Source: Mustelus asterias
Lineage: Eukaryota
Assembly: GCF_964213995.1 (NCBI RefSeq)
Contig: NW_027591489.1
Span: 11,957 to 64,000, forward strand
DNA: 52,044 nt
Direction of reading: 5' to 3'
In this document: in pieces, positions 26,256 through 44,883 of the stretch
Layout: every line of letters begins with the position of its first letter
How positions within the stretch are numbered: position 1 is the stretch's first letter
Notes under the pieces: model-generated
Told to the model about the DNA's origin: nothing
The model's database searches: none
The model's input: the letters and a program-made list of their open reading frames with translations, nothing else
Position numbers and translations under genes: made by a program

Positions 26256-26446
26256 AATTAATCCAGTTCTCCTGATTTATGTTTCCCTGTATCAATGTGT
26301 AATGGAACCCACTCCTGATACCGTGATCACACAAACACGGTGAGGGAGCTCCCTCTGGTGGTGATCTGAGGTAAATGGCCTCTGCTTGGGAGATCAGTGA
26401 ATTCTCAGACAACTGGAGGATCTTTCTTGTTGCAGGATTACGCTGC
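26256..26446 (-). repeat. Left arm of long-range inverted repeat with CTCF-like motif
   Basis: Reverse complement aligns with 50523-50710; CCACCAGAGGGAGC on the minus strand at 26348-26361. Confidence 0.88.
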
Positions 26447-26624
26447 TTAGGAATAAGAAAAATACGCTCTGTAACATATCACTGTGTAATCCAACAATTA
26501 CTCCAGTTCCCCTGGATTACTGCTCTGTAACATAATACGTAATACGCTGTAATTCAGTAATACGCTGTATTCAGTGTAATCCTGCAACAAGATCCTCCAG
26601 TAATTATAAACTGCCCCTCTGGAA

Positions 26625-26932
26625 CTTTTGTATCTGTCCCCTCTCACCTTAAACCTATGCCCTCTAGTTTTAGACTCCCCTACCTTTGGGAAAATATATT
26701 GACTATCGAGCTGATCTGTGCCCCTCATTATTTTATAGACCTCTATAACATCACTCCTCAGCCTCCTACGCTCCAGAGAAAAAAGTCCCAGTCTATCCAG
26801 CCTCTCCTTATAACTCAATCCATCAAGTCCCGGTCGCATCCTAGTAAATCTTTTCTGCACTCTTTCTAATTTAATAATATCCTTTCTATAATAGGGTGAC
26901 CAGAACTGTACACAGTATTCCAAGTGTGGCCT
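26625..26932 (-). mobile_element. CR1 LINE fragment
   Basis: EYCVQFWSPYYRKDIIKLERVQKRFTRM motif. Confidence 0.9.
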
Positions 26933-27540
26933 ACATATTCACAAAATATTATTTTCTATTAATATCATTTCGCATTAATCGGCTTTAATAGTTCTGCTGT
27001 GCTTTGCATACAATTAACATGACCAAAAAGGTTTCTCGGCTGGAAATATTTTGTGATAATTCCAGAAACAATTTCAATGATAACACGCTGTTTCCACAGC
27101 AGCGCTCAGTTCAACAAGATACTTTGCATTAATTGTTATATCCCCGATGAAGTTCGCATTCACTTAAATATGAGTTTTGGAGAATAATTGGCAATAAAAC
27201 GCTGTTTGGAAATTTTTGTGCCCGATTATTACATTGTTTCTGTGCAGGCGCAGCATTCCTTCCAAGTAATTTGTAGTTGGTGCAGAGGTAATTAATCACT
27301 AATCTCATCTCAAAATTTGTGAAATGGTTTGGTGTTTCTCAATTGTTTCTGTATTGTTTCAACTCGGTGATCCTGAGCGGTTGCACTTTTTCCAGCTAAA
27401 TGAAAAAAACAAACTGCGTTTAAACATCCTTGTCAGGACAAAACAAACTGGTATCGGAAAAAATAAAACAAATATGTATTTGAGCATTTTATTCATGTTA
27501 ACCGATGCTTGCAGATTAAAGTAAATCATGAATTACAATT

Positions 27541-29107
27541 CTTACTGCGTCACTGTATCTCTGTTAGGGACATTACACTACCCTGGATCTGTTATATCTG
27601 ATGTGCTCATTTTCAGAAAAAAAGATATTTTTTGCCTAGTTTTCGAGATTTGAGATAGACAGGGAGAAATAGTTAAAAGTCGAAGGGAATTTTGAAATGA
27701 ATATCAGTTTAATTTAAAAGAAGTTATTGATTTTTGTTGTTGTACTTTGAAAATTGATCAGTTAGAATCCCACAGTTTAAATAAATTTGACTGAGTGAAC
27801 ACAGTTTTCTGACAGGTGGAATTCGCTAACACTAAACAATTGTTCATATCATGGTGTTTGAATTGTCGTAAGGTGTCAACAGAAACTGGCTAGAGATTTA
27901 CAATTTAATACTTGAAATTCAAATAATTAATTTTTTATAATATTATAATATTTTTATATTAGTAATATTTGCTCTGCATTTAATAATAACATCCTGTCTC
28001 CCATTACTGCTGAACATAGAATAGAATTATTGGATGAATAAATGACAGAATAGAAGAATTGATTCTATTTGAGCATTATGTTTAATTAGTATTAAATATT
28101 ATACTGAAGAAAAAGTCTCGACTTATTTTGTGCATCATGTTTCAGTGTTGCAGAGGATTTGAATCAATTGTCCTCATTGTGTTTTTCATTGTTTAATTCA
28201 GAACTTCTTAATTTAAACAATATGTTCAGTAATTAAATTATATGGATGGTCCAAATTATTAAATCTAGGAAGCAGCTTCGTTGACCTCAAACTGCCAGGC
28301 CGTTACAGTGTATACAAATTCAGAAACATGCATTCTTAACACGTTTGCAGGTTACAATAAGGCATTTGGAGTAAAAGTGGAAATGAAAAAACATGACAAT
28401 GTTATTCGATTGAAGCAAATGAATTACAGATGTCTGAATCTTTCCATTCAGGAATTTGAAGTTTATTGTTTGAGATTTAATTGGAACCTAATTACTTCAC
28501 AATGTTCGAGGCAGGGAAAGTTTTGAATGATTGAAAACTGATTTTATTAGGGAGTACAAATCAGCTGACAGGAAAAGTAACCGGCAATTAACAAAACAAA
28601 ATATAATATTCGTGCTAATTAATTTAAAACAAAATACCTTGAATAATGCACGGGCGTGCAAAATATCATCCGTTTTAGAGAATGTTTAATTGTATCGAAA
28701 ATGAATTCAGAAACAAAACCTTTCTTTCATCAGCTATGCTTAGCTCGATAAGGTGTTTTACCTCGACTATTTTGTTGATTACATTTAATTAAGAAATTCG
28801 ATCGAATCAGGTAATGATTTTCAATGTAAATGTTTCTTGGTTTATTTAATCCTTACTGTGTCACTGTATCTCTGTCAGGGACATTGAACTGTCCTGAATC
28901 TGTTATTTTTGATTCCTAATTTTCAGCGAAATTACATTTTTACATAGTTTTCGAGAAGTGAGACAGACAGAGAGACTTAATTAAAAATCGACAGGAGTTT
29001 TGAAATGAATATCAGTTTTATTTAAAAGAGGTCATTGATTTTCTGTTGTAAATTGATCATTGATCAATTAGAATCAAACAGTTTGAATTAAATTGACAGA
29101 TTGAACA
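27541..29107 (+). repeat. Diverged ~260-bp direct duplication (27541-27801 and 28852-29107)
   Basis: Shared CTTACTG.GTCACTGTATCTCTGT.AGGGACATT ... TTTGAAATGAATATCAGTTT.ATTTAAAAGA ... ATTGATCA.TTAGAATC. Confidence 0.88.
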
Positions 29108-29599
29108 TACCGACCTGCTGGGAAATCGATTGTTGCACCGTTTGTGTCTGTTCTGTTTCTGCGCGCGTGGTCACCGTGTTGGGACCAGGAATCTGCCTGA
29201 CTGGTTGCAAATCTTCTGGTTCCTTCTGCTGTATTTCAGGGAGTGAAATTTGATTTATTTCTTCAATAAACTTGTATCTGTGAGAAATGTGACAGTTTGG
29301 CTTGATGTTTGGCTCGGCGTCTCAGAAATTAGATCCCTAAAGCACACTGTGACCATCAGAGAGAGCAGAAACGTCAGACTGCAGAGGGAGATTTGGATGA
29401 TTTTTAACCAGTGATGAACCGGCCTTGGGAATGTTCAATGAGCAAATGCAAAGTGAGATTTACTATATTATGCTCCGGAGTAAAGCAGTCCATGACCTGT
29501 TTGGTATGACAGTTGAAGGGTCAAATTCATTTGCATCTTATTTTTAATCTCCTAAAGCCATTTTAGAGTCATTTGCTCGGCCAGAATTTTTAATCATCA

Positions 29600-30000
29600 A
29601 TAATTGTTCCTTGAGAAAGTGTTGATATGAAGCATCCTTGAATAACTGCAATCCATCTGCTGCAGGCATCCGCCGTGCTGTTAGGCGGAAATTCCAGGAT
29701 TTTGACCCAGAAGGAACTGAGGTATTGTTTCAAGTCAGGATGGTGTGTGTCTTGGAGGGGAGCTTGCAGGTGGTAGTCTTCATATGTGGCTGCTGCCCTT
29801 ATCCTGTTAGGATATAAAGGCAACGGGTTTGGACAATGTTTACTATGGAGCCTTGGTGAGTTGCTGCAGTGCATCTTGTATATAATACACACTGCTGTCA
29901 CTGCTTGTTAGTGATGGAGAGAGCGAATAGGGTGAATGAGGGGGCGGATAATCTTGTGGGTGGCTTTGCCCTGGATTGTGTCAAATTTCTTGAGTTTTTA
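29600..30000 (-). mobile_element. Old LINE remnant
   Basis: AAVCIIYKMHCSNSPRL-type ORF2 C-terminal motif. Confidence 0.55.
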
Positions 30001-43149: not shown

Positions 43150-43692
43150 ACACAGAAACTAGAAACGGGAGTACGCCTTCGAGCTGCTCCGCCATTCATT
43201 TTGAAAATGGCTGATCAACCAATTCAATATCCTGATTCTCGCCCCACCCCATATACCTTGATCCATTTAGCCCTAAGGGCTTGAATTCATACATTGTTTT
43301 GTCCTCAACTATTTTCTGTGGTAGTGAATTCCATACATTCACCATCTTCTGGGTGAAGAAATTTCTCCGCACCTCAGTTCAAAAAGGTTTACCTCTTATC
43401 CTCAAGCCATGACCGCTGGTTCTGGACTTATCCACCAATCCTTTCTGAATCTACCCTGTCTAACTCTGTTAGAATTTGATAAGTTGCTATGAGATCCCCT
43501 CTCATTCTTCTAAACTCCGGTGAATATAATCTTAACCGACTTAATTTCTCCTCATATGACAGAACTGCATCCCAGCAATCAGCCTTGTAAAATTTCGCTT
43601 TACTCTCTCTATAGCAAGGACATTGTTCGTCAGATAAGAACACCAAAGCTGCACACAATACTCCAGGTGCGGACCCACCAACGTCCTATATA
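43150..43692 (-). mobile_element. CR1 LINE 3' fragment
   Basis: LSYEEKLSRLRLYSPEFRRMRGDLIATY motif. Confidence 0.85.
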
Positions 43693-43889
43693 ATTGTAGA
43701 TTATATTACTGAGAGAGATTAATTTAATAATATATGCATTGACAATTTTATTAAGCGTTTAAGTTAATAACACATAGGCTTTGAAAAGTATATCAGAGAA
43801 CAAAATAATACCTTAAGAAGGGAAAATGAATAACCAAAATAATATCCATGACGAGAAAAAAAATCTGAAAGTATTCCCTCTCCCCGTAG

Positions 43890-44014
43890 ATTCCGCAGAA
43901 TCCACCTGGATTGAAGACCAGGATGATAACAGCAATATCTGGACAACTGCTTCGACATTCATAGTCCTGTTCTTCCTGAGCATGTCCTACAGCGCTGCCG
44001 TCACTCTGGTGAAG
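43890..44014 (+). CDS. IGHM: IgM transmembrane exon TM1
   Basis: ccccgtAG acceptor (phase 1) and AAG|GTGAGA donor. Translates DSAESTWIEDQDDNSNIWTTASTFIVLFFLSMSYSAAVTLVK, with the conserved antigen-receptor TM (CART) motif. Confidence 0.95.
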
Positions 44015-44156
44015 GTGAGATGATTCAATCCACCCACATCTGAATCAGATAGGAGAGGTTTGAAAAATATCCAGAAGTCTCAATTTAGAAGAGCCTTTAG
44101 ATAAATGTCTCAAACACATAAAATGGTTGTTGAATTATTTTATTTCTCTTTTGCAG

Positions 44157-44165
44157 GTCGGGTGA
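44157..44165 (+). CDS. IGHM: IgM transmembrane exon TM2 (Val-Gly-stop)
   Basis: Strong acceptor tatttctcttttgcAG after a 142-nt intron, then GTC GGG TGA; AATAAA at 44226-44231. Confidence 0.85.
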   Translation, partial: VG

Positions 44166-44883
44166 TTGAATTTAGGAAATCTTGTGGTTTTCGCCCATCT
44201 GTCCGCTCACAGTGTGGTGCTGTGGAATAAAAATACGTTATCATTGTGATCCTCAAAGTTAATGTGCCTTCAGTGAACAGATTCGAATCCATAACTGAGA
44301 TAGAATATAAGCTGGATTTCGTTTTTGTTTCTGTTTAAAATGAATGAGATAATCGTGTCGACAATATAATTGTATTTTGGAGTTTCACCATTGTTCAAAT
44401 TAATGTGTAAGTTAGTGGTTATTTCTTATTGAGAATTATTCACCGCCTTTTATGTGGAGGCCCTGATTTCTTGATTTGATTTGATTTATTGTTGTCACAA
44501 GTATTAGCATACAGTGCAAAGTGTTGTTTCTTTCTTTAGTTAATTACAGTTATAGACAATTGTCAGTTTAGGCGACAATGTTATGTTCTCACTGTGACGC
44601 TCAGTTTGTGTATTCACCTGGGGTCAACTTTAAACTGTATCTTATTGTAAAATGTTCTCTGTGAAATTTTAAATAAATCTTGAATGACAAATTAAATGAC
44701 TTAGAAGTTGCTACATGCTGAGCTCCACGGCATAACCTTATCACTCGATTTTCCAATCCGAACGCTCCCTCACTCACGACGCCCCTTTCAACCGATAGGG
44801 CTTTGTAATCAATCGTGTTTGGATTTTGATCAACCCGACGACACTTCAGTGAAGGTGCCGCTGCGCTATCCAGTGTCCCAAAA

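Follow-up and report, generated by a model that had tools for sequence, protein, structure and literature searches.

An IgM constant gene of the shark Mustelus asterias without its V-D-J head is very probably a young pseudogene

A stretch of 52,044 nucleotides from the shark Mustelus asterias (the window; G000:C1457:11957-64000 of a 3.68-Gb assembly, with coordinates below given as window positions and C-numbers denoting contigs of that assembly) contains an IgM constant (Cmu) gene with no variable (V), diversity (D) or joining (J) segment upstream. We consider it very probable that this gene is a silent, recently decapitated IgM copy, i.e., a young pseudogene of birth-and-death turnover. The observations behind this view are a junction with its fusion partner and a microhomology, copies of this junction on four contigs, and a gradient from intact to broken genes over eight headless events in the genome. 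Promoter, leader, V, D, D and J were removed as the intron between J and C was fused to a zinc-finger segmental duplication at a piece of a long interspersed nuclear element (LINE), probably by germline end-joining repair. Without a promoter of its own the gene would not be expressed, its constant exons are probably still intact for lack of time to decay, and it should decay in the future like older headless copies, which gene conversion from neighbouring clusters may slow.

Shark immunoglobulin heavy-chain (IgH) genes are described in the accessible parts of the literature as miniclusters, including germline-joined clusters and a few pseudogene clusters (PMC4279169, PMC5192425, PMC4588147, PMC2435157), with promoters at the V segments only (PMC5192425). 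The window gene resembles an elasmobranch IgM minicluster (leader-V-D-D-J-Cmu) in its four C1-set domains, secretory tail and transmembrane exons TM1 and TM2, all open and spliceable, and in a J-C intron of about 9 kb that is 94-98% identical to that of the nearest headed clusters in the same genome, but differs in having no promoter, leader, V, D or J and in a tail without the last residue. The original prediction for this DNA, made from the letters alone, had listed six open Cmu exons with AG/GT sites and two poly(A) signals, and we find the same: the secreted and membrane splice forms both translate without internal stop, CH1, CH2, CH3 and CH4 each pass the Pfam C1-set cut-off, and AATAAA stands at 39679 and 44226. 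The tail had been read as SSCQ followed by a stop, but it actually ends in SSC through a private CAA>TAA change at 39637, whereas CAA, and with it the usual Cys-Gln ending, is kept in 41 of the 41 paralogs that cover this site.

The prediction had also seen no VH, D or JH upstream of CH1, and this held up in both approaches that we used. Queried by tblastn with VH and JH taken from an intact paralog, the window and the initial 84 kb of its contig (87 kb in total) yielded no VH and no JH, and a scan of 24-36 kb for recombination signal sequences (RSSs) found no canonical V, D or J set. As positive controls, the same head queries (tblastn and blastn) match the clusters on C194 and C1179 strongly, and a comparable RSS scan detects such sets in headed paralogs. 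The sole V-set match with an E value under 1e-3 in the window search is a T cell receptor (TCR)-like relic that lies downstream of the gene, at 46.9 kb. Since J is located 8.1-13.6 kb 5' of CH1 (median 10.8 kb) in 46 of the 55 exact CH1 matches of the genome, a J would be expected near 25 kb of the window, where it is absent; likewise, the leader, VH, D with RSS and JH that a minicluster carries within about 8-14 kb 5' of Cmu1 are missing. On the continuing contig C127, the nearest J found is about 193 kb off and in opposite orientation.

Base-level alignment placed the true break at 26,931 (Table 1) and not at 26,256, where the predicted feature had begun. All sequence to the left, through 26,932, is part of a zinc-finger-region segmental duplication unit, pieces of which occur at 92-98% identity on C181, C395, C170, C124 and C1179, with an inverted copy downstream of the IgM cluster of C194. 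The zinc-finger region is therefore the fusion partner at the junction and not unrelated to the loss of the head, as had been assumed, and the supposed inverted-repeat arm turned out to be no structural arm but part of a dispersed element that belongs to the same unit. Where the unit ends, the top matches to a 723-bp repeat segment stop at 26,932 or at most 4 bases from it while the unfused copies displayed continue past it, and in a search with 26,256-30,200, the matches of 34 other IgM clusters start only at 26,931. The lost head comprised the promoter and leader, V, D, D and J, and a further 1.65 kb of intron; compared to C194, the promoter is gone together with at least 3.4 kb spanning the leader to J+1646, i.e., a defined breakpoint has removed promoter and first exons as in a 5'-truncated pseudogene. 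The predicted labels of a "headless C" and "recently truncated" gene are thus supported by this junction, by other contigs sharing it and by low private divergence (see below). A simple internal deletion of a C1179-like cluster was dropped as an explanation because the whole left side is part of the duplication unit, and an origin of the junction from RAG activity at a cryptic RSS was rejected because no RSS adjoins 26,931.

The genome contains at least eight independent headless Cmu events, eight being counted here, and three candidates share the junction of the window. Nine of the 55 CH1 matches are without J, and 5 further candidates came from comparing 77 CH2 and 82 CH4 matches by eye against 86 J matches; C71h (break at a run of N), C2511 and C971 (contig ends) and C71m (has a V) were dropped from the headless count. 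When identity was measured against 48 headed regions, a subset of the headed clusters, the four headless copies closest to a headed cluster (the window, C131, C128 and C444, at about 96-99%) proved intact and the four most diverged ones, C96 (95%), C173b (90%), C91e (81-88%) and C71n (70-87%), broken, with stops, frameshifts or exons missing. The five headless events compared in this respect have different upstream partners. The 49 rows scored as headed include 3 with point lesions and 6 without some exons in the stretch fetched (C150 in both); the C1179 cluster has lost its leader and, by a cut before CH2, everything after CH1, and the C194 and C2117 clusters have no TM exons. A young Tx1-like LINE, 98-99.5% identical among near-full-length copies, touches several cluster breaks. 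The IgM cluster region is one of rapid cluster turnover.

Some individual loci stood out. On C444, at about 178 kb (L108), the Tx1-like LINE is joined inside JH so that the J splice donor is left 5' of an intact Cmu, and an element-driven chimeric transcript is possible there. A young intact non-long-terminal-repeat element of this kind, with 4.4 kb seen at G000:C194:110189-114625 (L051/L052), recurs at several IgM cluster breaks; its 1170-aa frame has an endonuclease-like start, and from its motifs we take it to be Tx1/L1-like. C166 carries a fully joined, in-frame V-D-J in genomic DNA at about 443 kb (L011/L010), while V-D appears to be joined in C143a and C127b, and V-D-D in C1179. On C71, the Cmu copies at 5.36 and 10.60 Mb (L094 versus L093), one of them directly after a run of N, have identical exons and are possibly due to a misplaced scaffold piece.

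The window Cmu is 98-99% identical to headed clusters and falls into a subgroup with C143a, C108, C127b, C437, C166 and C2117. Its divergence from this subgroup is 1.2-2.1% for exons versus 1.1-2.3% for introns; the exons are thus no better conserved. Private changes are few, at 2 of 1307 sites in exons and 4 of 2329 in introns, and both coding changes (K>N missense at 36175 and the Q>stop nonsense change at 39637) are non-silent. In a neutral simulation, the share of runs that kept frames and splice sites intact was 59-87% for a divergence of 0.1-0.3% and fell to 33-48% for 0.6% and 10-21% for 1.2%, and a neutral copy at the private divergence observed (0.15-0.2%) would be intact about 70-85% of the time. 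Youth therefore suffices to explain the open frames, which are weak evidence of function, unless the loss of the head is much older than the private changes suggest. Of the predicted gene that had "kept its frames", the open exons stand, while their value as a sign of function is small, given also that 4/4 of the more diverged headless copies are broken. Among singletons, headed clusters show purifying selection (35 silent, 41 missense, 2 stop; p=0.0009), and the headless set (3 silent, 3 missense, 1 stop; still including C71h, which contributed none) shows no difference from neutrality or from the headed clusters. Neutral evolution after truncation may be reflected in the two non-silent private changes and the broken diverged copies, with the pooled tests of headless copies not significant.

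Several results weigh against a young pseudogene. The selection tests are underpowered (Fisher p=1.0 for silent, missense and stop changes in headless versus headed copies), and the exon/intron ratio of 0.84 in headless versus 0.64 in headed copies (p=0.62) is too weak to separate the two. The boundary between intact and broken copies is thin, with C444 at 95.7% over one segment versus C96 at 95.4%. If each head was lost as early as the split from the closest headed sister sampled, at about 0.5-1% per branch, the probability of staying intact would be about 0.1-0.5 per copy and four intact copies would be unlikely; mosaic exon identities hint at gene conversion, which blurs the dating of head loss. 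Furthermore, 4/8 headless breaks cluster in the J-C intron at J+1646, +1829, +1913 and +1939 (post hoc p about 0.004 under a uniform model), for which random turnover offers no explanation. Four of the first five events fell within 293 bp (p 0.0004-0.004) and none of the three later ones, after which we did not uphold a break hot spot and kept the clustering only as unexplained. The zone is AT-rich (61-73%) and at J+1500 to +2100 shows no enrichment of motifs for activation-induced cytidine deaminase (AID; WRC/GYW at 37-43 per 300 bp versus 24-45 elsewhere, 0-1 AGCT), nor is it enriched in stable folds (folding z -0.1 to -1.9), so that an AID-motif-rich or structured target as expected of a switch acceptor was not seen. 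It may be a fragile site, or the pattern may arise because some element of the intron is retained, for example the octamer at 29,529; an octamer lies at J+3.8 to +4.2 kb in 6/7 headed references.

An assembly misjoin near 24-27 kb, which the original prediction had named as fatal to its own reading, could be suspected from a run of N near 24.2-24.4 kb of the window and from the wealth of near-identical duplications in the region, but we find this scarcely credible. The search with 26,256-30,200 detected the left-hand sequence at about 100% also on C462, C553 and C4533, all of which carry the identical junction without N at 99.2-99.8% over 3-5 kb and collinear with the window, with C462 and C4533 crossing both the N-run stretch and the junction. 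C553 (to 29,903) and then C127 (from 29,904) match 696-51,537 of the window at 99.6-99.9% (98.6% in a G-rich block) in near-full-length alignments without N; the Cmu of C127 has 0 exon and 4 intron differences, and the contig diverges from the window at 51,537. The junction also lies in non-repetitive intron with a microhomology of 2 bases and no long shared repeat. That C462 switches to a different Cmu type in a simple-repeat tract after about 30 kb could mean a chimeric contig, and C553 is collinear with C462 at 1 of 3 sampled offsets. Because the C553/C127, C462 and window arrangements differ, the junction is present in at least three arrangements; all copies come from one assembly, in which these contigs may be alleles, recent duplicates or partly redundant.

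An intact headless Cmu might alternatively be used, as the prediction had also offered. As a passive acceptor, it would receive the rearranged VDJ of another cluster by recombination within the 9-kb intron that it has kept, and this VDJ would be expressed with its C, in keeping with nurse sharks, for which the accessible text of PMC4279169 and PMC4588147 reports that V can be expressed with a C from a different cluster over 120 kb distant and without switch regions. The copy retains its intron from J+1646 onward along with the CH1 acceptor, every exon and both poly(A) sites, all four independent intact headless copies keep the intron from J+1.94 kb or earlier, and on C127 the nearest J found is the one about 193 kb off. 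Inter-cluster isotype switching in the nurse shark was reportedly described by Zhu and colleagues in 2012 and Zhang and colleagues in 2013. Through it, a C lacking V could be expressed together with the VDJ of another cluster, but in the accessible accounts it takes place between clusters that each have their own V-D-J, with no mention of a headless acceptor. In the tetrapod translocon IgH locus, downstream CH genes similarly are constant exons without their own V-D-J, but they have switch repeats and cryptic promoters, none of which we identified in the window. Both are reported to be absent in sharks in the accessible part of PMC4588147. We judge use as an acceptor to be unlikely, given the private stop in the tail with no silent private change, the four broken copies among the more diverged ones, and an intron that is probably less accessible without a V promoter (judging from the accessible text of PMC5192425); moreover, about 80 headed clusters would offer the same acceptor, so a headless one would add little. 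Equally doubtful is the extended idea that intact headless Cmu genes are kept as passive switch acceptors, as an intermediate from minicluster to translocon, with J+1.65 to +1.94 kb fragile also in germ cells. Still less probable is a sterile or V-less Cmu transcript driven from the fused unit or the intron by a promoter that is cryptic or bidirectional, despite the retained octamer, a TATA-like box and minus-strand donor-like sites near 25,012 that point to a head-to-head gene, and a secreted catfish IgD that lacks V (accessible text of PMC5192425). For none of the 10 strong plus-strand donors at 24.4-36 kb does an upstream ATG frame in phase with CH1 exceed 2 codons, which leaves no way to add a leader, and a start at the first internal Met (residue 30) would give no signal peptide; the V-less chain offered by the prediction thus finds little support.

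Contigs from sequencing runs did not contribute to these assessments. No run on record as RNA was listed for 35,900-39,720, which has no bearing on expression. Over 35,300-39,860, the contigs of four runs were compared with the window on 40 of 249 difference rows. Those of one run behave as spliced IgM RNA of another organism with many differences and are uninformative for the window copy. In three other runs the introns are covered as in DNA and the private sites 36337 and 38815 show the paralog letter only; they were not used, as contigs cannot show absence and another individual or species is possible.

Non-functional or partial IgH clusters among functional ones have precedents in the accessible parts of published studies: three IgM cluster pseudogenes among 12-15 nurse shark loci (PMC5192425, PMC2435157), and, in Table S1 for stingray, gene models labelled "IgM C only" (one) and "IgW (C only)" (nine) (Flajnik et al. 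2025, PMC12227049). Head loss is not described for the former in the accessible text, whereas the window break is base-resolved and compared over eight events; the latter may be a limit of gene models or annotation and not real deletions. Our literature search, whose coverage did not extend to most subscription papers, found no paper on headless shark Cmu genes.

Table 1. Features of the headless Cmu gene and its upstream flank (window positions)
Feature	Position	Strand	Evidence or remark
Zinc-finger-region segmental duplication unit (fusion partner, now upstream flank)	696..26930		Collinear pieces on other contigs
C2H2 zinc-finger array in duplication unit	19849..20964	-	Open reading frame (ORF); Pfam zf-C2H2, 12 stretches
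723-bp repeat segment, terminal LINE fragment cut at junction	26210..26932		Matched at 92-98% on 17 contigs
Breakpoint, 2-base CT microhomology	26931..26932		Base-level alignment; corresponds to J+1646 of intact cluster
Retained J-C intron, about 9 of 10.7 kb	26931..35987	+	96.4% to C194 over 9.1 kb
Octamer motif in retained intron; candidate enhancer element	29529..29536	+	
Cmu1 (CH1) exon	35988..36287	+	AG/GT ends, open frame, Pfam C1-set; private K>N at 36175 creates N-G-T sequon
Cmu2 (CH2) exon	37268..37573	+	AG/GT ends, open frame, Pfam C1-set
Cmu3 (CH3) exon	38466..38774	+	AG/GT ends, open frame, Pfam C1-set
Cmu4 and secretory tail exon	39251..39639	+	Membrane splice donor inside the exon, after 39580; final residue lost to private stop at 39637
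Secretory poly(A) signal AATAAA	39679..39684	+	
TM1 exon	43890..44014	+	AG/GT ends, open frame
TM2 exon (V-G-stop)	44157..44165	+	Read from sequence
Membrane poly(A) signal AATAAA	44226..44231	+	

Around the Cmu gene, the window holds further features. At 24780-25020 on the minus strand, a short ATG exon accompanied by a TATA box and donor-like sites would belong to a putative gene that is head to head with the headless Cmu; 62 of 67 listed ORF pieces were scanned against Pfam and none scored above cut-off. A G-rich 20-base tandem array at 34450-35010, about 1 kb 5' of CH1, is common to headed clusters. The frameshifted V-set relic at 46700-47050 (plus strand; Pfam V-set E 8.5e-4, under the cut-off) is found 2.6 kb downstream of TM2 and looks TCR alpha/delta-like by its motifs. 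Between it and the Cmu gene, a remnant at about 45700-46130 (minus strand) resembles, by eye, a G-protein-coupled receptor gene. From about 50700 to 52044 (plus strand), the sequence resembles, by eye, a decayed hAT/BED-type transposase, inside which C127 leaves the window. TCR-type V exons between IgH clusters are on record in the accessible part of Flajnik et al. 2025 (PMC12227049).

As a young pseudogene, the headless Cmu would be an ordinary case, but it shows shark IgM clusters being dismantled via rearrangement with neighbouring zinc-finger duplications and young LINEs. It is also a warning, because with eight headless events among roughly 80-90 Cmu copies, counts of open Cmu exons overestimate the number of functional IgM clusters. 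Finally, the private bases at 36175 and 39637 tag transcripts of a constant gene that is unable to make its own VDJ, and a VDJ read with both of them would prove inter-cluster switching or trans-splicing without any need for locus-specific patterns of V plus C.

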